64,000 nucleotides of DNA from Bacteroidales bacterium (lineage in GTDB: Bacteria > Bacteroidota > Bacteroidia > Bacteroidales > 4484-276): positions 3,135 through 67,134 of the forward strand of contig DASRND010000003.1 of NCBI GenBank assembly GCA_035647615.1, read 5' to 3'. The translations under genes and the position numbers were made by a program. This document shows, piece by piece, positions 1,274 to 64,000 of the stretch. How positions within the stretch are numbered: position 1 is the stretch's first letter; the number at the start of each line of letters is the position of its first letter. The notes below the pieces were generated by a model. It was not told where the DNA came from. It did not search any database and worked only from the letters and a program-made list of their open reading frames with translations.

Positions 1274-1338
1274 AATCGTTATTTTCGGTAAAAATAATAA
1301 AAGCCTACTTTTGCGCTGAATATAAAAAAATTGAAACT

Positions 1339-2661: not shown

Positions 2662-2687
2662 CCGCCCAATTTTAAAAGCAACACTAG

Positions 2688-4118
2688 ATGAAACAATGGA
2701 TCATTTTATTGATTGCCTTGACAACCATACTGATACCTCACTCGTGTGACATTGACTCAACTTCTTCTGACACTGACGCCCTTGCTGCTATACAGGATAA
2801 GTCGCTGAGCGACATACTGCAAAGAGGCAAACTCATAGCCACCACCAATTATAATTCGTCCAATTATTTTATCTACCGTGGCGAACCGGCGGGCTATGAA
2901 TACGAGATGCTCGAGGCTTACGCCCAACATCTTGGCGTGGATCTGGAGCTGATTGTTAATGATAGCTACGAAGAAGCACTTGCCGACCTTGAGCGTGGCA
3001 AGGTAGATTTGATTGCCATGGGAATAAAAGTTATTGGTGAACGCACTCGGCAGGTCGACTTCAGCAAACCTTTGCTGCAAACCCGCCAGGTTCTGGTGCA
3101 ACGACTGCCCGCCAACTGGCGGCAGATGCGCACCACTGCCGAAGTGCAGCAGCATCTTATCCGCAACCCGCTCGATCTGGCCGGCAAAATGGTGTACGTA
3201 CCACGCCATTCGGCTTACAGCCTGCGTCTGCACAACCTGCAGGAAGAAATGGGCGACAGTATTATGATCGTGGAGTTTCCGCAGTCGGATGAAAAACTAA
3301 TAGAGATGGTAGCCCGCGGTGAGATAGATTACACCGTGTGCGATGAACATGTGGCCATCGTAAACAAGAAATATTTCCCCGATATCGACGTGGAAACAGC
3401 ACTTAGCTTTCCACAAAATGTGGCCTGGGCAATGAAAAAGCAAGACAATGCCCTACAGCAAAATCTCAACGAATGGCTCGGGACTTTCACCGACAGCCGC
3501 ATAGCACAGCATATTTATAACAAATATTTTGTTAATCCCCGCTCAATGCAATTCGCACACAAATATCACTCGGTGCGCAGCGGACGTATCTCCAAATGGG
3601 ACGACATCCTCAGGCAGAAAAGCAACGAGCTGGGATGGGACTGGCGATTGGTAGCTTCGCTGGTGTTTCAGGAATCGCGGTTTCAGACAGATGCCACTTC
3701 ATGGATGGGCGCGCAGGGACTGATGCAGCTCATGCCCGGCACCGCCCAAATTTATGGCGTCGACAGCCTCTCGTCACCTGTCGAAAATATTATCGCCGGC
3801 ATAAAGTATCTGAAAATGCTCGATAATAGGTTTAAAGATATTGTGCAAGACCCCGACGAGCGTATCAAATTTGTACTCGCCGCATACAATGCCGGTATTG
3901 CCCACGTCTTCGACGCCCGTCGCCTGGCCGAAAAGTATGGCCGCGACCCAAACGTGTGGGCCAACAATGTGGACTATTTTCTGCTCAACAAATCCAACCC
4001 TAAATATTACAACGATGACGTTGTCTTTTACGGCTATTGCCGTGGCGAAGAATCCTTCAATTATGTCAACGACATCCTGCAGCGATTCGAGCATTATCGC
4101 AATGTTATTCCGGGGTAG
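2688..4118 (+). CDS. mltF: membrane-bound lytic murein transglycosylase F-like (SBP family 3 domain + SLT domain)
   Basis: 476 aa. Signal peptide, an N-terminal solute-binding-protein-like half, and a C-terminal SLT catalytic motif (FQESRFQ...GAQGLMQLMPGTA...AYNAG). Confidence 0.8.
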   Translation: MKQWIILLIALTTILIPHSCDIDSTSSDTDALAAIQDKSLSDILQRGKLIATTNYNSSNYFIYRGEPAGYEYEMLEAYAQHLGVDLELIVNDSYEEALADLERGKVDLIAMGIKVIGERTRQVDFSKPLLQTRQVLVQRLPANWRQMRTTAEVQQHLIRNPLDLAGKMVYVPRHSAYSLRLHNLQEEMGDSIMIVEFPQSDEKLIEMVARGEIDYTVCDEHVAIVNKKYFPDIDVETALSFPQNVAWAMKKQDNALQQNLNEWLGTFTDSRIAQHIYNKYFVNPRSMQFAHKYHSVRSGRISKWDDILRQKSNELGWDWRLVASLVFQESRFQTDATSWMGAQGLMQLMPGTAQIYGVDSLSSPVENIIAGIKYLKMLDNRFKDIVQDPDERIKFVLAAYNAGIAHVFDARRLAEKYGRDPNVWANNVDYFLLNKSNPKYYNDDVVFYGYCRGEESFNYVNDILQRFEHYRNVIPG

Positions 4119-4145
4119 TCAGAAAGCAGTCGGCAATCATCACAC

Positions 4146-5540
4146 TTACTTGTGACCAAGCATCTTGCGCGGATCCACCCATTCATCAAATTCCTTGTCC
4201 GTTACCAATCCTGATTCGAGGGCTGCTTCGCGCAAAGTTTTGTTTTCGTTGTGGGCTATCTTGGCAATCTTAGCGGCATTTTCATAGCCAATGTGCGTAT
4301 TGAGCGCCGTGACGAGCATGAGCGAATTTTCCAAATTTTTATTGATGTCAACAAGATTGGGCTCTATGCCCACGGCACAGTTGTCGGTGAACGACACACA
4401 GGCGTCACCCAGCAATCGCGCCGACTGCAGCAGATTGGCTACCATCACGGGTTTAAACACATTGAGTTGAAACTGTCCGTGGGTGCCGGCCACAGCAATG
4501 GTCATGTCGTTGCCAATTACCTGTGCGCACACCATAGTGAGCGCTTCGCTTTGGGTGGGATTGACTTTTCCGGGCATGATGGATGATCCGGGTTCGTTGG
4601 CCGGAAGGATAAGCTCACTGATCCCGCAGCGCGGACCCGAAGCCAACAACCGGATGTTGTTGCCGATGTGCATCAGGCTCACCGAAAGGGTTTTTAAGGC
4701 GCCGGAGGTTTCTACCATTGCATCGTGAGCCGAAAGCGCTTCAAATTTGTTGGGCGCGGTCACAAAAGGGAATCCGCTGATTTCAACAATTTTCTTTGCA
4801 ACCAGCTCAGCATAACCTTTGGGCGTATTCAGTCCGGTGCCTACGGCAGTGCCACCCAGCGCCAATTCGGCAAGATGCGGCAATGTAGCTTCAAGTGAGC
4901 GAATGCCATGATTGAGTTGTGAAACATATCCCGAAAACTCGTTGCCCAGCGTCAGCGGCGTAGCATCCATCAGGTGGGTGCGGCCGGTTTTTACAACATC
5001 TTCAAAATCCTTTGCTTTGGCGGCAAGTGTATCACGCAATTTTTTTATCCCCGGAAGGGTAACGGTGACGATGGCAGTGTAGGCCGCAATGCTCATGGCC
5101 GTGGGGAAAGTATCGTTTGACGACTGCGATTTGTTGACGTCGTCGTTTGGATGGATAAACTTTTGTTTGTCGTCGAGGGTGCCGCCATGCATCACGTGTG
5201 CGCGGTTGGCCACCACTTCGTTTACGTTCATATTGGATTGGGTGCCGGAGCCGGTTTGCCATATCACCAGCGGGAAATTGTCGTCGAGTTGGCCATTGAT
5301 GATTTCGTCGCAGGCGCGGCCGATGAGCTTTTGTTTTTCTTCAGGCAAAACGCCCAGCTCATAGTTGGCCATAGCGGCGGCCTTTTTCAGGATGCCAAAG
5401 GCTGTGATGATTTCTTTGGGCATAGAGCCGGGCTGCCCGATTTTAAAGTTTTCTTTAGATCGCTGTGTCTGCGCGCCCCAGTATTTGTCGGCAGGAACTT
5501 CTACCGTTCCCATAGTGTCGTGTTCGGTTCTTGTTTTCAT
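4146..5540 (-). CDS. fumC: class II fumarate hydratase
   Basis: 464 aa. Fumarate lyase signature [16 protein letters not shown]. Full-length match to the FumC pattern ([11 protein letters not shown]...). Confidence 0.95.
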
Positions 5541-5551
5541 CTGAACTATTT

Positions 5552-7057
5552 TTATTTGTCTAAAATAATCAATTTCTGGTCTTCTCTAATTTTTCTGTCT
5601 TCCATTTTTATACCCATAGCCTGCGCTATTTTTTTGGGCACATCTGTATTGTCGTAAACCCCGCTAAAAGATTCCGCGCCAGCGCCAATAGCATACACCG
5701 GTACCGGCAATCCTGTATGCGACCACGTGGTCCATCCCAGACCGGCTTTGTTGTTGAGGATACGCGTGGCGGTAGCTGCCAAGGCATTCTCATAGCTATA
5801 GCGTAACCGCATCTCATCTTCGTCTTCAAATTTCAACTGTTTGGTGGTTACCAGATAGGCATCCTGCAAAAGTTTGTTTTCACGATCTGTCAACAGAATA
5901 CCATCCACAGTTCCAAGTTTATAATATTTGTACACCAGCGCCATAGCGGTATCGGGGTGGTTGTGTCCTTCGATGGCAAATGTGGAATCTGCTATTTTGG
6001 CAAAACGATCCATAGATACTTTTTGTGCTGTGAGCATCTGCAGATAGCTTTCGTAATGTGTGAGGGCGTACCCGAGGGCGAGACCACCAGTTTCGTGGTC
6101 GGCGGTTACGATGATGAGTGTTTCGTCAGGATGCTTCTGATAAAATTTCAATGCCGGTTCGATGGCATGTGCCAGCGCCTCTATATTGTAGGCCATAGCC
6201 ACGGCGTCGTTGGAATGGCAAGCCCAGTCGATCTTGCCTTCTTCGCACATGATAAAAAAGCCTCTTTCGTTGTCGAGCATCTGAATAGCTTTTTCGACAT
6301 ATGCTGACAACGGTATGTCGTCAGCAGTTTGATCCATAGCATAGGGCATGGCTCCCGAAGATTCGAGACGCGGCGCTACTGCCAGCGCTTTGCCTACGGC
6401 CGGTGATAATGTGTCGAATTGTTCGCGGGTACGGGTGATGGTGTAGCCGGCTTTTTGCGCAAGCTCCCAGGAGCTAGGACTTTTCTTACCGCCGCCATCG
6501 GGTTTGGCAAATCCGCCGCCGCCAAAGAAGTCGAAGTTGCTGGCGGCCAGGTCTTGTGATATTTCATAATAATCGTTGCGGTCGGGACGATGGGCATAAA
6601 ACACTGCCGGTGTGGCATGGTCGATGCTCACGCTGCTGATAATTCCCACCTTTTTGCCGCGCGCTTTTGCGTAATAGGCTATCGAGTTGAGCGGCTCAGT
6701 GTTGTCGCCATTCATGCCAATACGATTGATATTGGTTTTGTGTCCGGAAGCCAACGCTGTTCCTGCGGCAGCCGACCCGGTGACGAGGCGGTTGGCAGCG
6801 TGTGTGGTGATAAGCCCCGTTACAGGAAACTCGCTGAAGTTGAGATGTTCAAAGCCGTCCTTGTTGTGTCGGGCAGCCAGCATAGCTTCAGTTGCAGCTA
6901 CCTGCGCCAGACCCATGCCGTCGCCGATAAAATAAAAAACATACTTTGCCCGCTGTGCCTCCGCTTGATTTGTCCGCTGCGCCTCCGCCTGAAATGACAA
7001 CAGAAAAAGAAGGACAATCAGAAATAAATGCTTTTGAATGATACTGAAAAGTTTCAT
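5552..7057 (-). CDS. alkaline phosphatase family protein (secreted)
   Basis: 501 aa. Signal peptide, metal-ligand motif FIGDGMG, nucleophile region [13 protein letters not shown], and TADHETGG. Confidence 0.85.
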
Positions 7058-42188: not shown

Positions 42189-43748
42189 ATGGCTAAGCAA
42201 ATTATACCATTCTTTTTATTTTTCTTCATTTCGTTCTCTCCGATGCTCATGGCGCAGGACACGATCAAGCCGGAGAATTATCAGATTTTTTATTATGAAA
42301 ATGAAAACATCGCCAGCGAAGGCCTGATGGTAGATGGAAAGCCCGATGGCTATTGGAAGACTTACCACGAAAACAGAACGCTGAAATCGGAAGGCAACCG
42401 CACAAATTTTGATTTGGAAGGGTCATGGAAATTTTATGATGAAACCGGAAAGATCTTGTTGCTGGTGAATTATAGCCAAGGCATTAAAAACGGGCTGCGT
42501 ATCACCTGGCACGACCAGGAAATAGTTGCAGAGAATTTTGAAAACGACATCCGGCAAGGTCTCACCACCTATTATTATGCCGACAGCACCATCGCCAAAA
42601 CCATTCCTTTTGTGAATGGCCGTGAAGAGGGACTGGCCAAAGAGTTCGCCGACGACGGGAGAGTAATCACTCTCACCACCTACAAAAAAGGTTACATCGT
42701 GGCCCGCGAACGCATCAACCGAACCGACTCGGAAGGACGCAAGCAGGGAGCCTGGAAGTTTTTTCACAACAATGGTCTGGTAAGTCTCGAAGGCCGCTAT
42801 ACCAGCGATGAGAAAGATGGGTATTTTAAAAGTTATGATAAAAATGGCAAGCTGCTCGAAACCAGCAAATGGGTAAATGGCGTGCAGCAGGAAGATGTGG
42901 CTGAGCTGGCGCGGCTCGAAGTGGTGAAAGATTATCACAACAACGGACAGGTGGCCATTGTGCAAACCTACAAAAATGGATTGCCGCAAGGCGTAAGGCG
43001 CGAATACGACGAGGAGGGAAATCTGGTGTCAGGCGCCTATTACGAAAATGGCGTGCTGACCGCCAGCGGCATCACACTTACCAATGGCGTGCGCAATGGC
43101 AAATGGGAAGAGTTTTATCCCGACGGCTCCATGCGTGCCGAGGGTAGCTATGCCGATGGACTAAAAACCGGACGCTGGAATTATTACCACCCCAACGGGA
43201 AATTAGAACAAACCGGCACTTACAACAATAAGGGAACGCCGGAAGGTCTCTGGACGTGGTATTATCCTTCGGGTTCGCTGCTGCGTGAAGAGAATTTTCT
43301 GCATGGCCTGCCTGACGGCATGCTGACCGAATATTACGAAGATGGCAACATCGTTACCGAGGGCGAATACATCGAAGGATTGCAGGAAGGCCCCTGGACA
43401 TACACCTACGGCGACAGCCGCGAAGAAGGCAGCTATAGCTATGGCCGAAGAAACGGTGTTTGGAAGTATTTCGACACGGATGGCAACTTGCTTTTCGAGG
43501 GCGAGTTTATCGATGATAATCCCCACGGCAAGCATGTTTTTTATTGGAACAACGGCCAGGTAAAAGATGAGATAAACTACGTGGCCGGCATGAAACAGGG
43601 TGATTGGAAAAAATACAATTCCGATGGCACGCTCCTGCTGGTAATCACCTTCGAAAACGGAATCGAACGCAAGTACGATGGCGTTACCATCAAGCCGGCT
43701 TTTTCCGAATCGTTCGACGATGATGGCGATGATGAGGATTGGGATTAG
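42189..43748 (+). CDS. MORN-variant (YwqK-type) repeat protein, secreted
   Basis: 519 aa. Signal peptide, more than 15 copies of G-x-W-x-x-[YF]-[YH]-x-N-G repeats, acidic tail DDDGDDEDWD. Confidence 0.75.
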   Translation: MAKQIIPFFLFFFISFSPMLMAQDTIKPENYQIFYYENENIASEGLMVDGKPDGYWKTYHENRTLKSEGNRTNFDLEGSWKFYDETGKILLLVNYSQGIKNGLRITWHDQEIVAENFENDIRQGLTTYYYADSTIAKTIPFVNGREEGLAKEFADDGRVITLTTYKKGYIVARERINRTDSEGRKQGAWKFFHNNGLVSLEGRYTSDEKDGYFKSYDKNGKLLETSKWVNGVQQEDVAELARLEVVKDYHNNGQVAIVQTYKNGLPQGVRREYDEEGNLVSGAYYENGVLTASGITLTNGVRNGKWEEFYPDGSMRAEGSYADGLKTGRWNYYHPNGKLEQTGTYNNKGTPEGLWTWYYPSGSLLREENFLHGLPDGMLTEYYEDGNIVTEGEYIEGLQEGPWTYTYGDSREEGSYSYGRRNGVWKYFDTDGNLLFEGEFIDDNPHGKHVFYWNNGQVKDEINYVAGMKQGDWKKYNSDGTLLLVITFENGIERKYDGVTIKPAFSESFDDDGDDEDWD

Positions 43749-49739: not shown

Positions 49740-51302
49740 TTATTCCACCACCATTTTGCGCACCCTGTTGATGTTGTCGCCGGTAAGCGAGAAATAATAA
49801 ACGCCGGGCGCCAGGTTGTATTTGCGAGCGTCAAAATGTTCGAGATACATACCGCTGCTGAGCTTTTCATGATCGATCAGACAAGCAATCTGTCGGCCGA
49901 AAATGTCGATAACTTTAAGCGTAACCGTTGCCGGACTTCGGAGTTTAAACGAAAAATGTGTGGTGGCGCTGAACGGGTTGGGATAATTCTGGTTGAGTGC
50001 AAAGGGAATTGCGGATTCGATGTGATTACTGATGCCTGTTGAGATGGTGTCGATGATGGCCGTCCACACACTTAGCTGGCCATTGTGCAGGCGCGTCCAG
50101 ATGGGTCGAATCACATTGTTGACAGCTGAGATATTGTTGTAATCGCCAAAGAAAATACTCGACACGGGAACAAAAGGCTCCTCGCTGATTTTGTAATTAC
50201 TGATGGTTTCGCCGCCATCGGTGGAAGTGGCCATGTAAACGTCAGTATTGCTGTCGGTATAGTTGCGGCGATCGTAAAACACAAAATGCAGATGGCCGGT
50301 AAACTGATCCAAAGTCATCCAGGTAAAAAATTGATGCCTCCCGGGCGGGTCATCGTTTACACGGATGCGTTCCGTCCAGGTGTCACCGCCGTCGGTTGAT
50401 TTAACGAGCCAAACATCGGTGTCGTCAGTGCCGTTGCGTTGATCGGACCAGTTGATGTAAATAGTTCCATGATTTGGGCCGCCACTTCTGTCGCACACTG
50501 TTATTGGGAAACCGTTGCACCGGGAAATACCGGGGATTTCAAAATCCCATCCACCGGGAAGATCGCTCACAAATATGTCGTTTTCGAGCCAGGTTTCTCC
50601 CTGGTCAAGCGACCGGTCAAAAACCAACCCCAGCGGCCCTGCCCAACAAACGTAGATTTCGCCATTAGGACCTACCGAGGGCACAGCGCCTTCTACGGTT
50701 TCGTCGCTATCGATACAGTTGCCATCGACTTCGTTTATCCGCAAAGCCTCCGACCAGCTTTCGCCGCTGTCGGTAGATTTCGAAAACATAATATTGCTTC
50801 GGTGCTGTAAATTGCTGTCGCCATAAACATCAAACTGCGTCCAGGTTGCGTAAAGATTGCCATTGTTTCTATCCACGTCTACCCATGGCTTATCCTGATC
50901 TTTCCCATTCAATCCCATATAAGAACCCTGGCTCCAGGTGACCCCGCCATCCGTCGATTTCTGACATACGATACGGTCGAGCCAATTCCCATTAGATGGG
51001 TTGGAAAGATGAAAATAATAATAATGCCCATGCTCATCTACAATTACCATCGGGTCACCGGCCACGCCATACGCTGACGAATATAGTTTCTTCACGTTCC
51101 AACTGTAGCCACCATCATTTGAGTAAAACAAGTTGTTAATATTAGAACCGGCAATAATGCGATTGGTATTGTTGGGATCGATGTAAATAGTTGGCTCCTC
51201 CGGATAGCTCGAATTGCTAATCATCACGTTGGTGTGCTGTGCGGCGAGCTGCTGCAAACCAAACATGGCAAAGAAAAGAATCGCCATTTTCAGTGTCTTC
51301 AT
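49740..51302 (-). CDS. BNR/Asp-box beta-propeller (sialidase-superfamily-like) protein with T9SS type-A CTD
   Basis: 520 aa. Signal peptide. Six canonical S-x-D-x-G-x-[TS]-W boxes (YSNDGGYSW, KSTDGGVTW, KSTDSGESW, RSLDQGETW, KSTDGGDTW, TSTDGGETI). CTD: LNQNYPNPFS...VIDIFGRQI...GVYYFSL. Confidence 0.8.
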   Translation of the reverse strand: MKTLKMAILFFAMFGLQQLAAQHTNVMISNSSYPEEPTIYIDPNNTNRIIAGSNINNLFYSNDGGYSWNVKKLYSSAYGVAGDPMVIVDEHGHYYYFHLSNPSNGNWLDRIVCQKSTDGGVTWSQGSYMGLNGKDQDKPWVDVDRNNGNLYATWTQFDVYGDSNLQHRSNIMFSKSTDSGESWSEALRINEVDGNCIDSDETVEGAVPSVGPNGEIYVCWAGPLGLVFDRSLDQGETWLENDIFVSDLPGGWDFEIPGISRCNGFPITVCDRSGGPNHGTIYINWSDQRNGTDDTDVWLVKSTDGGDTWTERIRVNDDPPGRHQFFTWMTLDQFTGHLHFVFYDRRNYTDSNTDVYMATSTDGGETISNYKISEEPFVPVSSIFFGDYNNISAVNNVIRPIWTRLHNGQLSVWTAIIDTISTGISNHIESAIPFALNQNYPNPFSATTHFSFKLRSPATVTLKVIDIFGRQIACLIDHEKLSSGMYLEHFDARKYNLAPGVYYFSLTGDNINRVRKMVVE

Positions 51303-52863: not shown

Positions 52864-53322
52864 AAATTTCGATCTTACATAAATCAATTATACTATCACG
52901 AGCCAAGCAATTATGAATTTGGGTTTCGTGCATTCCTTTGTTTCTAATTTATTTTAATTATAAAATACAACAAGAAAAAGAAAACGTCGACTGATGGCAC
53001 ATTAATTGACACGCCCAAAGAACTAATTTAAAACCGTTTTTTAACAGCTTTCTCTATTTGTAAGTGTTTTAAATAATAATTTTATATTATTGAATATCAA
53101 AGATATAAATTTATCTTTTCAATAGTATCCATATAAACTGCGCCTCTCCTTTTGGATGATGTTAATATTCCATTAATTTAGCTGCCCAAAATATTTTAAC
53201 TAAGTTACCACTTTTTATTAACACTTGCTTAACCTCTAAAACCAAATTTATTTTTTAACATTCAGGATTTGTCAAAATTAACCCGGCAGTAATGGGGATT
53301 CTGTCGTTTGCAGAGTTTGACA

Positions 53323-56300
53323 ATGACTAAAAAAGGGGAAATCATGAATTTATTTTACAACTGGATTACCAGGGGGGTGATTTATGCCTTGGCGCTAGTA
53401 ATATGCACTTCAACCACACTCAACGCACAAAATTATTCTCAGCCATCTGGTGAACTAACTCAAGAAGAGCCTGGGGTTACTATTAACAGAATCAGAATTC
53501 TTGATTCTTTACTGCAAAATTACAATACCAAAGCCCCGTTTGTTTATCCTCCGGGATGGGACGTGCCGGTAAACACCGGAAATATTACCGGTGTGTACGT
53601 GGCACGTGAGGCCAAACCCAGCATCAACGGGATTCCGCTGAAGCAAAACGATGCTATAGGCGGCTTTTTCATCAATGACCAGGGCGAGTACCAGTGTGCC
53701 GGAGCCATTTATTGGCCTGACACTTCCGGGATAGTTTTTTCAATATTTGGCGACGATCCGCAAACACCTGTCAAAGAAGGTTTCGCATGGGGTGAAACCA
53801 TTCACTACAAGTTGTTTTCCTATGATCTTATGGCTGAATTCGATGTGGACGAAATTCAACTTAGTCCCGATTATTTGATGATTAATAAATGGTATCCACT
53901 TAGCCTGATCGGAATCGTAAAGATGAATTGTTATGAGGACATAATCGTTCGCGCCACAGCTGACAAGGAGTTTTTTTGCAATCAGGGTACAGCATTGCTG
54001 GATGCTGAAATCATCACCGGATTCGGGAACATCACTTATAGCTGGACCTCTGACCCTCCCGGTTTTTCCTCCTCACTAAAGAGTCCATCAGCAAACGTTA
54101 CCGAAAATACTGTTTTTAAGGTTCGGGCTTCTATGGGCAATGCTACCGCAAGCAGTATTATCCCCATCTGCATAAACCATTCATCCATGGTAGATGCCGG
54201 GATGGATATAGAGGTATGCGGTATCGATAGAATTTTGCTCGCACCATTAGCTCAGAATGTTTCCGAAGTTCAATGGGCAACATCCGGTGATGGCACTTTT
54301 GAAAATAGTAACGCAGCCAATACTTTTTATTTTTTTGGTGGAGGTGATCTGAATAATAGTGGAGTAACTCTCAATATCTCCGGCCTGCCATTGGCGCCTT
54401 GCACTGCTGTTGCTACAGATCAGATGGAGATAACACTTTTCCCGTCTCCTCAGGTTACAATCCCTCAAGGACTTTTCACCTGCCAGGAAATCCCTGTTGA
54501 TATTGAAGCAACAGCGACTAATGTTTCGGGACTTTTGTGGCAAACGGATGGTAACGGAACTTTTAGCAATCCTACCTCACTTGTTACAACCTACACTAAT
54601 GGCACATACGGAAATATGCATTCCTCTGTCCGGCTTACGCTTACCGGTTACGGACAGTCGCCTTGTGATGCTACTTTTGTTGACGAAACTTACCTCCAGA
54701 TTAATAAACCTGCAGTATGCTTTGCTGGAGTCGGTGCAACCATTTGTGCCAACGAAACCTACACCACCTGTGCTACCGCTTCTTATCAAAATACCGTAAA
54801 GTGGTCTACCAGCGGTGACGGCACCTTTTCTGACGACACCCAATTAATTACCACCTATACCCCCGGACCTAATGACAAAATCACAGGCAAACCACGTCTA
54901 ACCTTGTGCGTTACCTCTATTGCTCCGTGCACAGGATCCAAATACTCGAGGATGGATCTTTGGATTAAACCCGAACCGACAGTAAATGCTATCGATGATT
55001 TTGCCATCATCAACACTGATATAATTCCGCTTAATGCCACTGCTTCTTCCTATTCATCTTTACAATGGTCAACTTCAGGCGATGGAACTTTTGCCGAGGC
55101 TCAGCAAGCTGCTACAAATTATTATCCGGGACCGGATGATATCGAGATTGGTACCGTCATTCTCGGTTTACAGGCCAACCCGCTGGCACCCTGCGCCACA
55201 CCAGCACAAGATGAACTAATGGTTAGTCTTGTAGAAGGTGCTAAAGCCAATGCAGGCCCGGATTTAACGATCTGTGGTGCCACCACGGTAACTTTACAAG
55301 GCAGTGCCTCCAATTACGTTTCAGTGCTTTGGTCTACCTCGGGCGATGGCACCTTTTCCAACGCCAATCAACTGACAACGCAATACACCCCCGGAACTGA
55401 CGACGAAGCGTCCGGTGAGGTAGTACTAACACTCACACCCTTTGGTGAGCCACCTTTTGTAAACGGAAATCCTGATCACAAGACCGTGACTATCCTCCAA
55501 CCTGCAGTTGTGAATAAGATTATTGCGCTGACGGCAGTTTGTCAAACACAAGCAATAAATCTCTCGGCTACAGCCTCACATTATGCTTCTCTGATGTGGA
55601 CATCCTCCGGCAACGGGGCCTTTAACAACACTTCAATAATAAACCCGCAATATACTCCAGGAACGGTGGACATAGCCAATGGCAGCGTGGTGATTACCGT
55701 TACGGCAGCTTCGGTTGCGCCTTGTTCGGGCAATGCCACGAAGAGTAAAACGATACAGATAAAACATGCGCCTGTGGCAAATGCAGGAAACGACGTCACC
55801 GTTTGCCAGGGAACGCAAGTTCCGGTTAACGGAACTGCCCAGCACAATGGTAGTATCCTTTGGACGACAACAGGAGACGGCGTTTTTGCAAACCCGCAAC
55901 AATTAGCAACCAGCTATATTCCCGGAAACGGCGATGTGCAGTCAGGAACCGTAACGTTTACACTAACAGCAGCAGCCATACAACCATGTACAGTTTCTGC
56001 AGCAGATCAGCTTGTGGCTAAAATATTCAAAAATCCGGTTTGCAATGCAGGTATCGATATTGTTTCCTGCGAAAGAGAGCCCATTGCGATAAGCGGCACC
56101 GCAACCAACTATAATTCTTTGGTTTGGGAAACCACCGGTAGCGGCACTTTTGCAAACAAATATGCAAAGAACACAACTTATCATCCCTCCGATCAAGATG
56201 TAACAAATGGCGGCGTCACACTTACACTAAAAGCGCTGCCCATGACGCCTTGCCAGATAACCGCTGAGGATAGCAAGCTGATCACTTTATCGGTTTCGCC

Positions 56301-59300
56301 AATCGTTGTTGCTGGCAACAATATCATCGTTTGCGAACAACAAAGTGTGCAGCTTAACGGAACAGCTACCAACGCCCAATCCGTTATTTGGAGTTCGGAT
56401 GGAAATGGCGTTTTCGCTAATGCATCATCCTTATCAACCACCTATACACCCGGTAACCTTGACATTACGAATGGCAAGGCGGTGCTTCACTTAACTGCAA
56501 TTTCCGGAAATGCTTGCAACAATGTAACCGGTTCCCTCACTGTTTCCATTATTAAAAATCCTGTGGTGAATGCCGGCAACGACGGACAAGTGGCTCTCGG
56601 CAGCAGCTTTAAAACCAATGAAGCATCAGCAATACATACCAACAGCACGCTGTGGACAACACCTAATGGCGATGGTATCATTCAAAATGCAAATGCTATT
56701 AAGGCAACATACGTTCCGGTGGAAGCTGACTATTATGCCGGTGTTGTTACCCTTATTCTTACAGCAGCACCTATCAATCCCTGTATTACATCTGTTTCTG
56801 ATGAAATAAATCTCATCGTTACTTCCGGATGTGAAGACGCCACAGCTGTTGCCGGAGCAGATATGGAAATCTGCTACTATCCAAATACACCCATAACTCT
56901 GGCGGCAGCGACAGCACAAAATCACGCATCGCTGCTTTGGACTACGCAAGGTGACGGCACTTTTAGCAATGCCACTCAGCTGCATCCAAACTATACACCC
57001 GGAAATGGAGATGCCCAAAATGGCTTTGTAATTTTAAATCTTTTGGCCAGGGGCACAGGCGTTTGCAATGATGCCACAGATCAAATAAAAATCGTCCTTA
57101 TCCAACCTGCTACGGTGGATGCAGGAATTGACGCTACAATTTGTGTCAATCAATCATTTAATACAAACGGAGCGGCCTCCAATACCGAAGCCCTTCAATG
57201 GACAACCTCCGGAGATGGCAGCTTTGCCATTCCCAATCAATTAAAAACAACATATTTACCGGGCACAGCCGATAGAGTTGCCGGTCAGGTTCAATTATGC
57301 CTCAGTGCCGAAGGCCTTCAGAGCTGCCCCGCCGTTTCTGATTGCATGACCCTACACTTTCAACCATTGCCAACGATTTTTGCGGGATCGGATTTAACAC
57401 TCATCGTCGGTGATCTTTATAATACAAATGTGGCTCAGGCCTATAATTTTTCATCATTATTATGGAGTACTTCCGGCGACGGCACCTTTACGAATCCTTT
57501 GAAATTGTCGACCATCTACACGCCCGGACAAATGGATTGTCAAAACATGGTTGTAACGCTTACGCTGACGGCCTACTCAAAAAGCCCTTGCATGGGTAGT
57601 ATTCAGGATGATTTGGTGATCACTTTCGTGAATGGATGCGAAGACGCCACGGTTGATGTTGGTCCCGACAGAACAGTATGCGAATCGGCCAATGTTGACT
57701 TGGGAGGAGTTGTGCAAAACCAGACTTCAGTGCTCTGGAATACCAATGGCGATGGAACCTTCGATGCTTCCGCAAATATTGATGCTACTTATTTCCCCGG
57801 CACAGCCGACCTCGCTAATGGCAATGTTCAGCTTTGTCTTACAGCTTTTGCTAATGGCGAATGCAACGACGCCACCGACTACTTAAACATCACCTTTGGG
57901 AAGGCTCCGATTGCAAATGCCGGTCCTGATATTTCGACATGTAAAACCAATGCTTTCGTAAAGCTAAATGGTCAGGCACAAAACAACGAGTCGTTTCAGT
58001 GGATAACGCTGGGAACGGGCTATTTTGTTCCGCCGACAAGTAGCACCCCCAAATACTTCTTTAGTGGCCTGGACAAAGAAGTGGGCGAAGTACAGTTGAT
58101 CTTTGCAGTCACTAATGCTGCATGCGGTACCGCCGCTGACACAATGACCATAACCCTCCTCAACCCACCGCTCGTTTCCGCCGGCGCCGATGCTACCATT
58201 TGCGCAAGCCAGCCCTTTACAAATAATGATGCTACCGCAACGGATTTTTCGGCACTGCTCTGGAGTACCAATGGCGATGGTACTTTTGATGATGCCTCGA
58301 TGCTTCATGCTACCTACACTGCAGGTACTATCGACGCGGCTGCCGGCACAGTAACACTAACGCTGGCGGCTGACGGCCAGTCAGATTGCCAGCAGGCACA
58401 AAGCAGCCACACGCTTACGCTGATTCCTTCGGCTTACGCCAATGCAGGCGAAGATCGCACCATCTGCGAAACGGGAACTGTGAGCCTTACAGGCCAGGCT
58501 GCCAATTATGAAAGCTTATTGTGGGAAACCACCGGCGACGGCACCTTTGCTAACGCTGCTGCTTTGAACACTATCTATTTCCCGGGAGCCGGTGATCTTA
58601 CTCTCAGGTACTTGGAAATTAGCCTCACGGCTTACGCTGCAGGCAATTGCGGAGACGATTTCAGCGAATTACAAATTAACATCTTACCTGCGCCCTTCAC
58701 CAATGCCGGCAACAACCAGCAAATTTGTGCAGGTGAGCAGGTGCAATTATCGGCCACAGCCGCCAATTACGACGGTTTGTTATGGAGCACCAATGGCGAC
58801 GGGATTTTCAGCAATCCGTCGGCGCTTAGCGCAATGTACACACCCGGCGCTACCGACTTATCCTCCGGAGGCGTCACTTTGTGCCTCACTGCTGTGGGTA
58901 CCGAACCCTGCGGCGAAGTGATGGATTGTTTAGAAATCGACATCATAGCGCTCCCCACAGTAAATGCCGGAGCCGATGCCACGCTTTGCCAAAACAAAAC
59001 ATTGCTGCTCACGGGCAACGCTGCAAATTATAGCTCACTACAGTGGACAACAGCAGGCGATGGTACATTTACCAATACATCCGGAGCCAACGCTCAATAT
59101 TATCCGGGAAATGGGGATATTTCAGCCGGAAATGTGGTGATATGCCTGAATGCTCAGGGACTGTCAGGGTGTGGAATTGCTAACGATTGTATGGTGCTCA
59201 CCCTGCAAAAGAACCCGGTGGTTTTTGCCGGCAACGATGCCACCATCGATCAGGGCAGCAGCTTTCAAACCCTTCAGGCTAATGCCCAGAACTACTCCTG

Positions 59301-62300
59301 GTTAGAATGGAGCACTTCGGGAAGCGGAACTTTTGCTAACCCGCTGCAGGCAGTCACTACCTACACTCCGTCGCAGGCCGATTGCCAAAACCAGCCGGTG
59401 ACACTTACCCTTACTGCATTACCCAAAAACCCATGTACCGCGTCTGTAAGCGATGCGCTTTTGTTAACCATCAACATCCTGGATCTTATGGCAGATGCGG
59501 GGGATGATGCTGTGATTTGTTCAGGCCAGAATTTGCAACTTGCAGCTCAGGCCATCAACTACAGCACACTGCAATGGAGCACCAGCGGCAACGGAACTTT
59601 TGACGATGCTACAGCTCTGAATCCTATTTATATCCCATGTTCATCTGATGCTTTCAACGGACCGATAACACTGTGCCTGAAAGCTTTTGGCAACGATGCC
59701 GGTCAAAGCATCACCGATTGCCTTACGCTTACCTTTCAGCACCTGCCCATAGCGTTTGCCGGATCGGATAACACGGTTCCCATCGACGAAGGCTGCCCCC
59801 TTCATGAGTCTTTTGCTGAAAATTATGAAACCATTCAATGGTACACTTCCAACGGAATGGGAATGTTCGACAAAGAAAATATTTTGCATCCTACCTACTA
59901 TGCCTCACCCATGGACATTACGCAAAGCGAAATATTCCTATACATGGCTGTTTCGCCAATGAGCCCATGTGAGATTGGTGACGAAGACATGGTAGCTGTG
60001 AAATTTGTAAACGGTTATGCCAACGCAACGGCCTATGCCGGAGCCGACATGCACCTCTGCAAGGGCCTCGAAACTGAGGAGGTTTCCCTTACAGAAGCGG
60101 TAGCTGAAAACTTTAGCAGCATCCTGTGGAGTACCGGCGGCACTGGAACTTTCAATTATGATCACATCAGCCGCCCCCAATATTATCCTTCAGAACAGGA
60201 TCTCGCCAATGGATCGGTAACCCTAACCATGTCGGTAGCAGCTTTCGGTACCTATGCCCCTGCCACCGATCAGATTGTACTTTATTTTGATGAAATGCCT
60301 CAAGTTTGGGCAGGAAACGACATGACGGTGTGCAGCACGGATAATCTGCAGCTTTATGGCACAGCAAGTAATTACGCATCACTTACCTGGACCACCACAG
60401 GCGATGGCGTATTTGTAAATGGCAATACACCGCAGGCCACTTATTATCCGGGACCCGGAGATGTAATAGTTCCCAGCGTTACGCTATGTCTGGAAGCCGA
60501 AGGCTATGGCGAATGTTTTTCGGCCAGCGACTGCATGACGGTAACCTTTGTGCCAGTTCCGGGAGTTAGTGCCGGGATTGATGCAGCAGTATGTGCCGGC
60601 AGTTCACATTTGCTCCAGGGTACAGCATCAAACTTTGCAAGTGTACTATGGACCACTGCAGGCGACGGCAACTTTGATAATGCCACGCTGTTGCAGGCGA
60701 AATACACTCCCGGAGCAGCCGATATACTTTCCGGCAGCGTTAAGCTGTGCCTTACTGCACAAGGATTGATGGGATGCCCCGAAAACACAAGTTGCATGAC
60801 TATCACAATACAACGAAACCCGATAGCTAATGCCGGTCAGGATGCAGTAGCTATTACCGGCCAGCAATATCTCATCAACGACGCCACCGCACAATTTCAT
60901 TCAGCAGTACAGTGGATCACAAGCGGGGATGGTATCTTTGGGAATGCCGGTGAGCTAAACACCACCTACACGCCGTCAGCATTTGACGAGCAGCAACAGC
61001 AAGTAACGCTCACGCTCCAGGCAGCTCCGATAAATCCTTGCACCGTTGCAGCGAGCGACGAGAAGCAGCTTACCATTACACCCGATTGCCAGGATGCTAT
61101 TGCTGATGCCGGCACTGATCTCACCGTTTGTTATGGCGGCGCCATAGCGCTTAGCGCAACAGCTCAAAACCATACCGGAGTAGAGTGGAATACCAATGGC
61201 GATGGAACCTTCGATGCTTCCGCAAATATTGATGCTACTTATTTCCCCGGCACCGCCGACCTCGTTAATGGAAATGTTCAGCTTTGCCTCACCGCTTTCG
61301 CTAATGGCGAATGCAACGACGCCACTGATTGCATAGAAATTACCTTTGGCACCGTTCCCATTGTAAATGCCGGTGAGGATGTCACCATTTGTACTACAGA
61401 AGATTTTATTCAACTGGAGGGTATTGTTATTAACGGTGATAATTATCAATGGATTTCCACCGGACAGGGATATTTCGATCCGACCAATCAACTTGTGACG
61501 AAATATATCTTCAGCAGGTACGATAAAATTGATGGGTATGTAGATTTGATTCTGGCGGCCACTAAAAGCCCTTGCCCAACGGTGTATGATACCTTACACG
61601 TTACTTTCAATCCCGATCCTATTGTTTATGCCGGGGAAGATGCTACCATTTGTGGCAACGATGAATACCTAATTTTTGAAGCTTTTGCTGCCGAATACCA
61701 AAGCCTGGAATGGACGACTTCGGGTGATGGCACTTTTGAAGATGCAACCGCACTCAATACAATTTATTATCCAGGGTCGGGTGATATTGACGCCGAAACC
61801 ATTGAGCTGCAACTGATCGCATATCCTCTGGAGGGATGCGCTCCAGATGCAAGTTCGTTTATGCTTACGCTAATTCCGTCGGCTTACGCCAATGCTGGAA
61901 GCGATCTTACCATTTGTGAAACGGAAATTGCCAGTCTTTTTGGTCAGGCTTCCGGATATGAAAGCCTGCTGTGGGAAACCAGCGGCGACGGAATCTTTGG
62001 CAATGCTGCTGCACTCAACACCACTTATTTGCCGGGAGCCGGAGATCTTACGCTCGGTCAGGTAGAAATCAGCCTCACCGCATTCTCATCAGGGAATTGC
62101 GGCGACGCTGTCAGCGATATGCTGATTACAATCTTACCTGTACCCACCGCCAATGCAGGCAATAGCCAGCATATTTGTGCGGGCGACCAGGTGCAGTTGT
62201 CGGCCACTGCTGCCAATTATGCCAGCCTGTCGTGGAGTACCAGCGGCGACGGCGTATTCAGTAATCCTTCGGCGCTTAGCGCAATGTACACACCCGGTGA

Positions 62301-64000
62301 AACTGATCTGCAGAATGGATTTGCAGAGTTGTGTCTGACCGCGGTTTCAGCTGCTGCCTGTGTTGATGCTTATTCCTGTATCGAAATTGTTATCGAAAGC
62401 AGCCCGGTTGCTAACGCAGGTGCTAATGCTGTGATTTGTCAAAACCAAAATTATCAGCTATCAGCTAATGCAGAAAACCACAGCAGCATCGCATGGAGCA
62501 CCCTGGGCGACGGGTCGTTTGATAATGCAGCTTCACCCGCTGCCATTTACACGCCGGGAGCTGCAGACATCAGCCAAGGAAGCGCAGTGCTGATACTTAC
62601 AGCTTTCGCTGATGGCGTATGTGCCGATGCAACAGATGAAATGTTGCTTACCATTCAACTCTTGCCTGTGATTAATGCCGGAACGGATTTCACCATCTGC
62701 GAAAGCAACTTTGCGCAATTGAATGCCACGGGAACAAATTACAGCAGCATATTGTGGATAACCATAGGCGATGGAACTTTTGATGATGCCGCACTGCCAC
62801 AAGCTATTTATTTTCCGGGTGTAAATGATGTTTCAAATGGCTTTGCCAATCTCACCATCACCGCGCAGGGAATTTTACCTTGTACACAAAGCACCGACGA
62901 TTTGCACATTACACTGCAACCTGTTCCGGAAGTAGCTGCAATGGAAAATGCTTCCATCTGTCCGGATCAAAGCATAACTGTTGAAGGTTTTGTTACTCAT
63001 TATCAATCGGTATTTTGGAGCACTACAGGCGATGGAACTTTTGCAACGCCACAGACGCTCACTTCGGTATATTTTCCGGGTACCAACGACATAGAAACAG
63101 GAGGCGCTCAATTATGCCTTACCGCCATAGGACTTTATGATTGCGGTAACGCACAAGCCTGCATGCAGCTAACCATTATCAGCCTGCCGGAAGTAACAGC
63201 CGGCAACGATGTTACGATTTGCAACACCGGTATCGTGGAGCTTTCGGCACAAGCCAATAACTATGAAACGCTGCAATGGATGTCGGATGGCGACGGAACC
63301 TTCAGTGCCAGCACGGCACTCCTCGGCACCTATGCTCCCAGCGCTAATGATATTGCTGTCGGAAGTGTAAAACTCTGCCTCAATGCTTTTGCAGCAAATG
63401 GTTGTGGTCAATCGCAGGATTGCCTGATCGTTACTCTGGAAGCTCCGCCGACGGCTGATGCGGGAATTGATCAGACACTTTGCGTGAATCAAAATGCAAC
63501 TGTTTCGGGCGTAGTCACAAACGTAACGTCAGTGCTTTGGTCGACCAGCGGAGACGGTACTTTTGGAAATTCATCTGCTCTTACCACAATCTATTATCCG
63601 GGTGCAGCAGATTATGTAAATTTAAGTGTGGAACTGTGCCTTACAGCAAATGGTAATGGCATTTGCGATCCGGTGAGTGATTGTGTTGAAATGACTTTCC
63701 AGCCCGGCCCAACAGCTTTTGCCGGAAATGATGTAACGTTGTGTGCCAATCAAAATGTACCACTACAGGCAGCTGCCACCGAATACTCATCCGTATTTTG
63801 GAGTACCAGTGGGACGGGTAGTTTTAGTAATCCACAGATATTGAACCCCACTTATTTCCCAAGCCAGGCTGATAAAAATAATGGTTTCGTTCAGCTAACT
63901 ATCAGAGCAAATGGAGCCAACGGATGCGGCTACGTCACGGATGCCGTCGCAGTTACGTTTGTTCCGGTACCTGTAGCCAATGCCGGTGCTGATGCAACTA
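53323..64000 (+). CDS. giant secreted tandem-repeat protein, 5' part only (about 3,555 codons or more; 3' end beyond window)
   Basis: Frame 1 is open from the stop at 53290-53292 to base 64000. The track does not list it because it has no stop in the window. Candidate starts are ATG 53323 and ATG 53344 (MTKKGEIMNLFYNWITRGVIYALALVICTSTTLNAQ). A ~285-aa unique region is followed by 37 tandem 87-96-aa units. Confidence 0.85.
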   Translation, partial: MTKKGEIMNLFYNWITRGVIYALALVICTSTTLNAQNYSQPSGELTQEEPGVTINRIRILDSLLQNYNTKAPFVYPPGWDVPVNTGNITGVYVAREAKPSINGIPLKQNDAIGGFFINDQGEYQCAGAIYWPDTSGIVFSIFGDDPQTPVKEGFAWGETIHYKLFSYDLMAEFDVDEIQLSPDYLMINKWYPLSLIGIVKMNCYEDIIVRATADKEFFCNQGTALLDAEIITGFGNITYSWTSDPPGFSSSLKSPSANVTENTVFKVRASMGNATASSIIPICINHSSMVDAGMDIEVCGIDRILLAPLAQNVSEVQWATSGDGTFENSNAANTFYFFGGGDLNNSGVTLNISGLPLAPCTAVATDQMEITLFPSPQVTIPQGLFTCQEIPVDIEATATNVSGLLWQTDGNGTFSNPTSLVTTYTNGTYGNMHSSVRLTLTGYGQSPCDATFVDETYLQINKPAVCFAGVGATICANETYTTCATASYQNTVKWSTSGDGTFSDDTQLITTYTPGPNDKITGKPRLTLCVTSIAPCTGSKYSRMDLWIKPEPTVNAIDDFAIINTDIIPLNATASSYSSLQWSTSGDGTFAEAQQAATNYYPGPDDIEIGTVILGLQANPLAPCATPAQDELMVSLVEGAKANAGPDLTICGATTVTLQGSASNYVSVLWSTSGDGTFSNANQLTTQYTPGTDDEASGEVVLTLTPFGEPPFVNGNPDHKTVTILQPAVVNKIIALTAVCQTQAINLSATASHYASLMWTSSGNGAFNNTSIINPQYTPGTVDIANGSVVITVTAASVAPCSGNATKSKTIQIKHAPVANAGNDVTVCQGTQVPVNGTAQHNGSILWTTTGDGVFANPQQLATSYIPGNGDVQSGTVTFTLTAAAIQPCTVSAADQLVAKIFKNPVCNAGIDIVSCEREPIAISGTATNYNSLVWETTGSGTFANKYAKNTTYHPSDQDVTNGGVTLTLKALPMTPCQITAEDSKLITLSVSPIVVAGNNIIVCEQQSVQLNGTATNAQSVIWSSDGNGVFANASSLSTTYTPGNLDITNGKAVLHLTAISGNACNNVTGSLTVSIIKNPVVNAGNDGQVALGSSFKTNEASAIHTNSTLWTTPNGDGIIQNANAIKATYVPVEADYYAGVVTLILTAAPINPCITSVSDEINLIVTSGCEDATAVAGADMEICYYPNTPITLAAATAQNHASLLWTTQGDGTFSNATQLHPNYTPGNGDAQNGFVILNLLARGTGVCNDATDQIKIVLIQPATVDAGIDATICVNQSFNTNGAASNTEALQWTTSGDGSFAIPNQLKTTYLPGTADRVAGQVQLCLSAEGLQSCPAVSDCMTLHFQPLPTIFAGSDLTLIVGDLYNTNVAQAYNFSSLLWSTSGDGTFTNPLKLSTIYTPGQMDCQNMVVTLTLTAYSKSPCMGSIQDDLVITFVNGCEDATVDVGPDRTVCESANVDLGGVVQNQTSVLWNTNGDGTFDASANIDATYFPGTADLANGNVQLCLTAFANGECNDATDYLNITFGKAPIANAGPDISTCKTNAFVKLNGQAQNNESFQWITLGTGYFVPPTSSTPKYFFSGLDKEVGEVQLIFAVTNAACGTAADTMTITLLNPPLVSAGADATICASQPFTNNDATATDFSALLWSTNGDGTFDDASMLHATYTAGTIDAAAGTVTLTLAADGQSDCQQAQSSHTLTLIPSAYANAGEDRTICETGTVSLTGQAANYESLLWETTGDGTFANAAALNTIYFPGAGDLTLRYLEISLTAYAAGNCGDDFSELQINILPAPFTNAGNNQQICAGEQVQLSATAANYDGLLWSTNGDGIFSNPSALSAMYTPGATDLSSGGVTLCLTAVGTEPCGEVMDCLEIDIIALPTVNAGADATLCQNKTLLLTGNAANYSSLQWTTAGDGTFTNTSGANAQYYPGNGDISAGNVVICLNAQGLSGCGIANDCMVLTLQKNPVVFAGNDATIDQGSSFQTLQANAQNYSWLEWSTSGSGTFANPLQAVTTYTPSQADCQNQPVTLTLTALPKNPCTASVSDALLLTINILDLMADAGDDAVICSGQNLQLAAQAINYSTLQWSTSGNGTFDDATALNPIYIPCSSDAFNGPITLCLKAFGNDAGQSITDCLTLTFQHLPIAFAGSDNTVPIDEGCPLHESFAENYETIQWYTSNGMGMFDKENILHPTYYASPMDITQSEIFLYMAVSPMSPCEIGDEDMVAVKFVNGYANATAYAGADMHLCKGLETEEVSLTEAVAENFSSILWSTGGTGTFNYDHISRPQYYPSEQDLANGSVTLTMSVAAFGTYAPATDQIVLYFDEMPQVWAGNDMTVCSTDNLQLYGTASNYASLTWTTTGDGVFVNGNTPQATYYPGPGDVIVPSVTLCLEAEGYGECFSASDCMTVTFVPVPGVSAGIDAAVCAGSSHLLQGTASNFASVLWTTAGDGNFDNATLLQAKYTPGAADILSGSVKLCLTAQGLMGCPENTSCMTITIQRNPIANAGQDAVAITGQQYLINDATAQFHSAVQWITSGDGIFGNAGELNTTYTPSAFDEQQQQVTLTLQAAPINPCTVAASDEKQLTITPDCQDAIADAGTDLTVCYGGAIALSATAQNHTGVEWNTNGDGTFDASANIDATYFPGTADLVNGNVQLCLTAFANGECNDATDCIEITFGTVPIVNAGEDVTICTTEDFIQLEGIVINGDNYQWISTGQGYFDPTNQLVTKYIFSRYDKIDGYVDLILAATKSPCPTVYDTLHVTFNPDPIVYAGEDATICGNDEYLIFEAFAAEYQSLEWTTSGDGTFEDATALNTIYYPGSGDIDAETIELQLIAYPLEGCAPDASSFMLTLIPSAYANAGSDLTICETEIASLFGQASGYESLLWETSGDGIFGNAAALNTTYLPGAGDLTLGQVEISLTAFSSGNCGDAVSDMLITILPVPTANAGNSQHICAGDQVQLSATAANYASLSWSTSGDGVFSNPSALSAMYTPGETDLQNGFAELCLTAVSAAACVDAYSCIEIVIESSPVANAGANAVICQNQNYQLSANAENHSSIAWSTLGDGSFDNAASPAAIYTPGAADISQGSAVLILTAFADGVCADATDEMLLTIQLLPVINAGTDFTICESNFAQLNATGTNYSSILWITIGDGTFDDAALPQAIYFPGVNDVSNGFANLTITAQGILPCTQSTDDLHITLQPVPEVAAMENASICPDQSITVEGFVTHYQSVFWSTTGDGTFATPQTLTSVYFPGTNDIETGGAQLCLTAIGLYDCGNAQACMQLTIISLPEVTAGNDVTICNTGIVELSAQANNYETLQWMSDGDGTFSASTALLGTYAPSANDIAVGSVKLCLNAFAANGCGQSQDCLIVTLEAPPTADAGIDQTLCVNQNATVSGVVTNVTSVLWSTSGDGTFGNSSALTTIYYPGAADYVNLSVELCLTANGNGICDPVSDCVEMTFQPGPTAFAGNDVTLCANQNVPLQAAATEYSSVFWSTSGTGSFSNPQILNPTYFPSQADKNNGFVQLTIRANGANGCGYVTDAVAVTFVPVPVANAGADAT
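57655..59226 (+). repeat. higher-order block copy 1 (units 14-19)
   Basis: Collinear with 61105-62673 at a constant 3,450-nt offset. Includes a 68-nt perfect match (57736-57803 = 61186-61253) and a 29-nt perfect match (58819-58847 = 62269-62297). Confidence 0.8.
61105..62673 (+). repeat. higher-order block copy 2 (units 27-32)
   Basis: See copy 1. Unit-by-unit correspondence: 14/27 (WNTNGDGTFDA in both), 15/28 (atypical G-x-G-Y-F core in both), 17/30 and 18/31. Confidence 0.8.

Follow-up and report, generated by a model that had tools for sequence, protein, structure and literature searches.

A giant immunoglobulin-like repeat protein of a Bacteroidales bacterium, probably a cell-surface fibril exported through the type IX secretion system

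What does a bacterium make from a single reading frame that runs for thousands of codons and is still open where the sequence ends? The question is raised by a 64,000-nucleotide (nt) stretch of DNA from a Bacteroidales bacterium (assembly GCA_035647615.1, contig DASRND010000003.1, positions 3,135 to 67,134 of the forward strand), which we call the window and whose right-hand end is filled by a giant open reading frame (ORF) on the + strand. The ORF in the window encodes residues 1–3,552 of a 4,632-residue secreted surface protein. We consider it likely that this protein is a giant cell-surface fibril, probably an adhesin, in which a small head is carried on a stalk of about 44 immunoglobulin (Ig)-like units and which is exported through a type IX secretion system (T9SS). 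A first-pass annotation, made from the letters of the window, had drawn attention to the array of repeats and to a possible surface role; we report here how its claims fared.

The open reading frame and its two ends

Between 53293 and 64000, one frame of the + strand had no stop in 3,569 codons, compared with 101–241 stops in each of the remaining five frames, which bears out the earlier reading of a frame free of stops to the window end. Two in-frame ATGs lie seven codons apart, at 53323 (MTKKGEIM...) and at 53344 (MNLFYNW...). The first-pass annotation had started the protein at the former; the latter is more likely the start, because it is used in the public gene call (made on a contig identical to the window, with a product of 4,632 amino acids (aa)) and because the homolog P0121 opens with MNVFYHW. 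The probable start codon and Sec signal peptide occupy 53344..53430 (+ strand) and read MNLFYNWITRGVIYALALVICTSTTLNA before Q. In this sequence, inspected by eye, the n-region is charged, the core is hydrophobic, and a cleavage-like site of the small-x-small type (xNA before Q) is present; the signal peptide of P0121 (MNVFYHWLSRAIHVVLVSLLLYAFPVNA before Q) follows the same pattern. The earlier proposal of one giant protein, secreted and opening with a signal peptide, is supported. The part of the protein encoded within the window is acidic (isoelectric point 4.05), with Lys and Arg making up 2.2% of residues.

We regard the ORF as real. The window showed 0 mismatches to contig NODE_3_length_360542 of ENA ERZ12298774 (L001), which was placed via the upstream symporter gene; the contig sequence obtained through that gene extends to window position 62863. 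L002, a separate Logan assembly (k=31) built from a different run, is identical to the window up to 57765, covers the first 4.4 kb of the gene, and stops inside the first copy of a 68-nt repeat described below. Two orthologs from a genome collection, L011 in a Lentimicrobiaceae metagenome-assembled genome (MAG) and L012 in a MAG labelled 'Clostridia bacterium' INTA.CYC.150, are collinear with the ORF over 3–6 kb and through its last in-window residue, with ∼75% DNA identity and 51–62% protein identity to the window gene. In view of this DNA identity to a Lentimicrobiaceae MAG, that family is the most likely source of the window. An exact-match scan of genome and metagenome contig collections with the last bases of the window gave no match. 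The homolog search did not contain the protein itself (the longest match was 1,864 aa), and no 4,632-aa entry was listed in the 50%-cluster library.

The ORF leaves the window within its 38th repeat unit, which starts at 63952..64000 (+ strand); the final 13 residues in the window (VPVPVANAGADAT) are the beginning of this unit, and the gene end is expected near window-equivalent 67242. Thus, to describe the C-terminus we relied on the public product and on the orthologs. The number of residues past the window end is 1,080 by the public gene call and 1,079 in L012, counted after the VANAGADAT motif. This remainder in L012 consists of 7 units and a 471-aa tail (L012:6360-7844), in which an I-set-like Ig domain, a ∼150-aa domain that we refer to as 'GWSGxSS', a second head-like domain, and a C-terminal sorting domain (CTD) follow one another. 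Because 37 units lie in the window and 7 more in the collinear orthologs, we expect a total of about 44. The 'GWSGxSS' domain has the pattern 'GWSGxSS...YWP..INT...GW..(L/I)PV...C...K(E/D)I(A/G)G.G.YWP', and together with the second head-like domain it precedes the CTD in all complete family members (P0121, P0126, P0011, and others); for neither domain did we find a Pfam or PDB relative.

The CTD is of the kind that directs cargo to the T9SS. The public 4,632-aa product carries a Por_Secre_tail (PF18962) match in precomputed annotation. The tails of L012 and L011 scored 36.3 and 38.7 bits with PF18962 (cut-off 27) and 31.9 and 32.7 bits with the type A model TIGR04183 (cut-off 23), and the CTD portion of profile A3 matched solved T9SS CTDs at E=8e-11. 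These results support the earlier suggestion of T9SS cargo. The first-pass annotation had also proposed comparing the C-terminus with type A and type B models: type A is established directly on the orthologs, and for the window's own gene the answer comes by way of the public annotation. We conclude that the protein is, by all testable criteria, a predicted T9SS type A cargo. According to PMC9143113 and PMC4804311, such cargo is exported by Sec, recognized by its CTD, cleaved at the CTD by PorU, and attached to anionic lipopolysaccharide (LPS). General type A cargo, such as the gingipains of P. gingivalis, resembles the window protein in having a signal peptide and a C-terminal type A domain of ∼75 aa, and the same route of PorU cleavage and attachment to anionic LPS would be expected for both. 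The passenger differs: in place of an enzyme, the window protein carries a non-enzymatic repeat fibril of ∼4,550 aa.

The repeat array, the head, and their folds

The array comprises 37 tandem Ig-like units of ∼88 aa at 54166..63951 (+ strand), each with the signature W-x-T-S-G-D-G-T-F ... Y-x-P-G and with Cys18 and Cys79 conserved. The conserved Trp occurs 37 times in a single frame at a spacing of 87–96 aa, and a hidden Markov model (HMM) built from the units found 37 domains on the giant ORF (3,339.8 bits); the count of in-frame units given in the first-pass annotation is therefore correct, as is its unit consensus, with which our alignment of the 37 units agrees. Four positions of this alignment never vary (W37, G41, G43, and Y55), and four more (A11, F45, D61, and C79) are conserved in at least 90% of units. 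The HMM had no match outside the giant ORF in a six-frame translation of the window. Identity among the units averages 34% (range 19–72%), and Tandem Repeats Finder reported no DNA-level repeat in 53000–64000 because the units are too diverged in DNA.

One block of the array stands out from this background. Units 14–18 (57628..58935, + strand), the older copy, recur 13 units (3,450 nt) downstream as units 27–31 (61078..62385, + strand). The unit identities at this offset are 0.70, 0.45, 0.39, 0.72, and 0.68, where the background is 0.34, and the DNA repeats D3 and D4 are 76–82% identical; the block is a more recent duplication within the array. It holds a 68-nt exact direct repeat (57736–57803 = 61186–61253, offset 3,450 nt), which is the only exact repeat longer than 30 nt in the array. 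This repeat is the one site at which the unit count could be off by 13; a mis-join there would alter the count and leave the frame intact.

To what family does the unit belong? No curated model of Pfam or NCBIfam reached its threshold on the unit, and NCBIfam returned nothing at all. Weak matches below threshold came from PKD_4 (PF18911; 22.6 bits on the whole product, cut-off 27, and 6 of the 37 units at E≥0.0034), from PKD (PF00801; 1 of the 37 units, E=0.15), from Ig_7 'CHU_C associated' (PF19081; 2 of the 37 units, best E=0.091, below the gathering threshold), and from the K319L-like PKD family (PF22352). Cadherin, HYR, and Big models did not match the unit, and the SprB repeat (PF13573) was absent from the 3,559-aa product (E≤1) and from single units (E≤10). 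The earlier statement that the unit matches none of SprB, PKD, cadherin, HYR, and Big stands in the sense that no model of Pfam or NCBIfam reaches threshold. The PKD-type and related Ig-like families (PF18911, PF00801, PF19081, PF22352) share with the unit its size, an all-beta sandwich, an early Cys, an L-x-A motif, and a Trp ∼20 residues further on. Membership in PKD was rejected because no model reaches its gathering score, and W-x-T-S-G-D-G-T-F with Y-x-P-G is a signature specific to this unit.

An AlphaFold2 model of one unit, computed with the 37 units as alignment (predicted local distance difference test score, pLDDT, 95.7), is a seven-stranded beta-sandwich with one short helix. Its best match in the PDB was 9fly_A, the base of GhpA (residues 4151–5009), with a template-modelling (TM) score of 0.76, a root-mean-square deviation of 2.2 Å over 88 columns, and 23% identity; the other matches were generic Ig or fibronectin type III domains (TM 0.40–0.64). 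At the level of sequence, the unit profile found ∼41 weak stretches on GhpA at residues 4755–5638 with a period of ∼88 aa, and a broad profile built from 70 diverse units ranked GhpA top among PDB sequences (E=0.0044), with the best stretch aligning positions 8–82 to GhpA 4934–5002. Fold and sequence agree, and we conclude that the unit is an Ig-like sandwich with a remote but consistent relationship to the proximal repeats of GhpA. The suggestion in the first-pass annotation of an undescribed surface structure is not supported in view of this relationship. Its suggestion of an undescribed repeat family holds in part: the unit has no curated model, but it already occurs, without a name, in 12,083 protein clusters.

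GhpA (grappling hook protein A) is a protein of Aureispira sp. CCB-QB1 (PDB 9flp, 9fly, and related entries) with a signal peptide, an N-terminal adhesin-like hook of ∼1,400 aa, tens of Ig repeats of ∼88 aa, and a T9SS CTD; its hooks measure 240 nm (bioRxiv 10.1101/2024.01.29.577165). A second and much stronger link to it lies just upstream of the array, where a single module with the motif 'Y-x-W-T-S-D-P-P-G-F' (module 2; residues ∼206–281, 53938..54165, + strand) forms a second beta-sandwich in the AlphaFold2 model of the head region. Positions 148–217 of profile A2, which cover this module, matched 9flp_A at E=3.5e-71 (242 bits), repeatedly over GhpA ∼1146–4744, which is the stem, and on this profile evidence module 2 is unambiguously assigned as a GhpA-stem-type repeat. 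By these matches GhpA has two repeat classes, which the window protein combines in the inverse proportion, with one stem-type repeat and at least 37 of the base type. Homology between the two classes themselves was not callable, as hhalign of the unit (profile A1) against head and module 2 (A2) gave a probability of 13.5%. The stem-type profile also matched phage Ig-like decoration proteins (PDB 5lxk_A, 8zvi_a; E∼1e-6), and for the unit profile there was a weak match to the phage tail protein 9c2d_S (E=0.017); these hint that the two Bacteroidota Ig repeat classes are shared with phage surface Ig-like domains.

The head precedes module 2 and is a beta-sandwich of ∼130 aa (residues ∼76–205, 53545..53937, + strand) with the motifs PPGW, GD[YF]IGxF[YF], C[GA]G, and K[DE]GFxxxE. 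We found it in at least 65 of 120 listed homologs, and in alignment A2 the invariant head positions are P16, W19, D50, G53, F55, C65, G67, K91, G93, F94, and E98. The AlphaFold2 model of the head region is all-beta (pLDDT 90.5). The head is without a curated model: Pfam gave no match to it even at E≤10, and a fold search with the two-domain head model returned generic two-Ig-domain matches with TM <0.3. A second, diverged head-like copy lies just before the CTD in complete homologs and is significant in P0043 (4.7e-8), P0011, and P0038.

Cysteine pairing and distribution of the unit

The first-pass annotation had proposed that the two conserved Cys of each unit could form an intradomain disulfide. 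Covariation contradicts this and points to pairing between adjacent units. Within the window, the units that lack C79 (u05, u21, and u23) each directly follow a unit that lacks C18 (u04, u20, and u22), and each of the other C18-less units (u10, u13, and u26) precedes a unit that opens with an extra Cys in the motif 'GC[EQ]DA'. We extended the comparison to 4,922 units from 267 proteins, which form 4,423 pairs of neighbouring units. Of these units, 94% have C18 and 96% have C79. Presence of C18 in unit i was strongly coupled to presence of C79 in unit i+1 (odds ratio 42.8, p=4.5e-29), while C79(i) with C18(i+1) (p=0.26) and C18(i) with C79(i+2) (p=0.65) were uncoupled; an intradomain C18–C79 bond was rejected on a same-unit odds ratio of 1.5 (p=0.40). 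Neighbours in which both partners are absent numbered 28, in 20 proteins, against 6.0±2.2 (maximum 14) in 2,000 within-protein shuffles of unit order. Where C18(i) is lost but C79(i+1) remains, 61 of 121 cases have a linker Cys, compared with 385 of 4,251 otherwise. A second Cys pair, C70–C85, co-occurs almost perfectly within units (p∼1e-224); 13 of the window's 37 units have it.

From these patterns we infer that Cys18 of unit i bonds to Cys79 of unit i+1 and that neighbouring units would thereby be covalently stapled. The two positions are ∼149 aa apart. In GhpA, the inter-domain disulfide Cys2988–Cys3140 spans 152 aa, and the straightness and stability of the stem are attributed in part to inter-domain disulfides (bioRxiv 10.1101/2024.01.29.577165).

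The unit is widespread. An exhaustive search of 1.84 billion cluster representatives with the unit profile found 12,083 clusters at E≤1e-3, 6,122 at E≤1e-10, and 2,251 at E≤1e-30, with unit-bearing giants reaching 7,183 aa and 67 units. The names in use for the homologs are 'hypothetical', 'PKD domain-containing', 'T9SS type A sorting domain-containing', and 'gliding motility-associated C-terminal domain-containing'; PF18962 is common among them, and some have the type B CTD PF13585 and some the SprB repeat PF13573. Because several unit-bearing homologs carry PF13585, the unit combines with both CTD types, and it is a common, mobile building block of T9SS cargo. In P0122 (6,782 aa), for example, 57 units are followed by a long PKD-like run and a different C-terminus.

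The specific layout of head and tail is concentrated in Lentimicrobiaceae and other Bacteroidales MAGs. Complete homologs with this layout include P0011 (1,654 aa), P0020, P0030, P0126 (4,255 aa), and P0121 (5,351 aa, 52 units), the last of which is 38% identical to the window protein and collinear with it from the first residue, its units 2–5, 10, and 11 being positional orthologs of window units. Among loci L005–L083 the family is multigene, with at least 6 loci in Bacteroidales MAG CTOTU29519, at least 7 in Lentimicrobiaceae MAG SRP263991_co6_153, and stalks of between a few and more than 50 units. Our literature search found no description of the window repeat, the head, the GWSGxSS domain, or Lentimicrobiaceae T9SS giants.

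Some family members were found in MAGs with labels outside the Bacteroidota: L012, L016, L053, L057, and L075 ('Clostridia bacterium' INTA.CYC.150), L063 ('Desulfobacterales'), and P0005 ('Spirochaetes'). These labels are probably binning or naming errors.

We also counted the general O-glycosylation sequon of Bacteroidota, D-[ST]-[AILVMT]. The giant ORF has 3 sites compared with 17.5±4.2 in shuffles (0.84 per 1,000 aa), a strong depletion, whereas 22 other window ORFs have 43 compared with 26.5 expected (4.4 per 1,000 aa). Depletion was also seen in the closest homologs (P0121, 8 versus 32.8; P0004, 0 versus 20.3; P0020, 0 versus 7.7). Taken together, the unit family shows no depletion (3,061 versus 2,956), and P0008 is enriched.

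Elsewhere in the window, the gene at 49740–51302 (− strand), two genes upstream of the giant ORF, encodes a 520-aa BNR/sialidase-like beta-propeller whose C-terminus scored 26.2 bits with Por_Secre_tail (cut-off 27), and its product is probably a second type A cargo. At 42189–43748 (+ strand) lies a gene for a 519-aa protein of MORN_2 repeat variants (165 bits), which is unrelated to the giant ORF.

Proposed role and competing explanations

How would such a protein work? In the reading that we consider likely, Sec would carry the protein across the inner membrane, the units would fold and become disulfide-bonded in the periplasm, and the CTD would direct the protein to the T9SS translocon. The sortase PorU would then remove the CTD and the protein would be joined to anionic LPS, as PMC9143113 and PMC4804311 describe for other type A cargo. 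This would leave the C-terminus at the cell surface and place the N-terminal head farthest from it. At roughly 4 nm for each of ∼46 Ig-sized domains, a per-domain figure scaled from GhpA, the stalk would reach a length of the order of 180 nm, and the Cys18(i)–Cys79(i+1) staples would make it stiff and protease-resistant. The head, possibly together with the second head-like copy near the base, would be the likely ligand-binding part.

Several points weigh against this reading. Type A cargo can be released instead of anchored. The last 1,080 residues lie outside the window, the CTD of the gene itself being taken from precomputed annotation and orthologs, and no T9SS machinery gene was found among the window ORFs scanned. 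The sequence link between the unit and GhpA is borderline at its E value of 0.0044. The head had no specific relative in fold or sequence searches of the PDB, and no binding function can be assigned to it. Finally, the inter-unit disulfide is read from covariation among related sequences, for which the within-protein permutation controls in part.

The first of these points opens onto the alternative that survives best, an extracellular matrix or scaffold protein that is secreted by the T9SS and shed into the medium or a biofilm matrix, such as that of anaerobic granules. Domain architecture does not tell anchored from released type A cargo, a head-like domain at both ends could cross-link two partners, and the family is present in multiple copies in Lentimicrobiaceae MAGs. 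We nevertheless consider release unlikely, because type A CTD proteins are described in PMC9143113 as covalently anchored to anionic LPS and because GhpA and SprB, the known long-stalked Ig relatives, are attached to the cell.

The protein might instead be a multimeric 'grappling hook' like GhpA, in which parallel protomers, seven of them in GhpA, form a rigid hollow rod for catching other cells or their flagella, in a life of predation or antagonism. For the unit and for module 2 alike, the closest solved relative is GhpA, and the two proteins have the same overall layout (signal peptide, head, ∼88-aa Ig repeats, and T9SS CTD) and the same disulfide spacing. Other features weigh against it. 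The ∼130-aa head shows no detectable similarity to the ∼1,400-aa hook module of GhpA, and only ∼250 residues precede the array. The stalk is built nearly entirely from what in GhpA is the minority, base-type repeat class, as it matches only the proximal part (∼4755–5680), with one stem-type repeat added. The CTD of the window protein is type A, and its family has the extra 'GWSGxSS' and second-head modules ahead of the CTD. For GhpA, every Ig-like domain is reported to bear glycans (bioRxiv 10.1101/2024.01.29.577165), whereas the window protein is depleted in the O-glycosylation sequon. No PorP-like (ghpB), PorE-like (ghpC), or SprF-like genes were found downstream of the L011 and L012 orthologs, where the genes are convergent and encode a T9SS-CTD protein and a member of the Mur ligase family, and no type VI secretion system or predation context was seen in the window. 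We therefore judge a GhpA-like grappling hook to be improbable.

Still less probable is a mobile gliding adhesin propelled along the cell surface, like SprB of Flavobacterium johnsoniae. The comparison with SprB-type giant surface filaments made in the first-pass annotation is supported in kind: both are T9SS-secreted surface filaments of more than 4,000 aa that consist of Ig-like repeats and occur in Bacteroidota, and some homologs of the unit family carry PF13573 and the type B CTD PF13585. Membership was rejected because SprB has PF13573 repeats and a type B CTD, whereas the window protein has no SprB repeat, a type A CTD rather than the type B that associates with SprF/PorP-like partners (PMC9143113), and no SprF/PorP-like partner gene downstream of its orthologs.

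That the ORF is an assembly artefact or a pseudogene, a collapsed or chimeric array that merely resembles one ORF, is hardly credible: repeats are mis-joined by short-read assemblies, and L002 breaks at the 68-nt repeat whose copies lie 3,450 nt apart, but the frame is free of stops where the other frames are full of them, the units are diverged at 34% identity with a single exact repeat above 30 nt, L002 agrees exactly with the gene's first 4.4 kb, two orthologs are collinear through the window end, and the 4,632-aa length agrees with the ortholog tail within one residue.

Returning to the cell-surface fibril, we note that it is not a new type of system, as there are precedents for its size, for its route of secretion, and for the fold of its repeat. 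In a more tentative reading, which we think less likely than not, the repeat unit would mark out, together with the PPGW/GDYIGxFY head and the 'GWSGxSS' domain, a class of long surface appendages that is so far uncharacterised. These would be stapled by disulfides, could be multimeric as in GhpA, and would be anchored by the type A route, occur in multiple copies in anaerobic Lentimicrobiaceae, and carry a new ligand-binding head. If this is true, the grappling-hook principle would extend beyond aerobic predatory Saprospiria to non-gliding anaerobes with a different anchoring route.

SprB drives gliding and GhpA catches prey; beside these two, the window protein would represent a third architecture among giant T9SS-secreted Ig-repeat fibrils. 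The occurrence of its repeat in more than 12,000 clusters without a Pfam or NCBIfam model means that much Bacteroidota surface protein is labelled only 'hypothetical' or 'T9SS sorting domain-containing'. The inter-unit Cys rule, in which a linker Cys compensates for a lost Cys18, fits the one solved relative and would explain the rigidity of ∼180-nm stalks. The head and the C-terminal modules, for which no relatives are known, are candidates for binding domains of new types, and the organisms concerned are dominant in anaerobic digesters and sediments.

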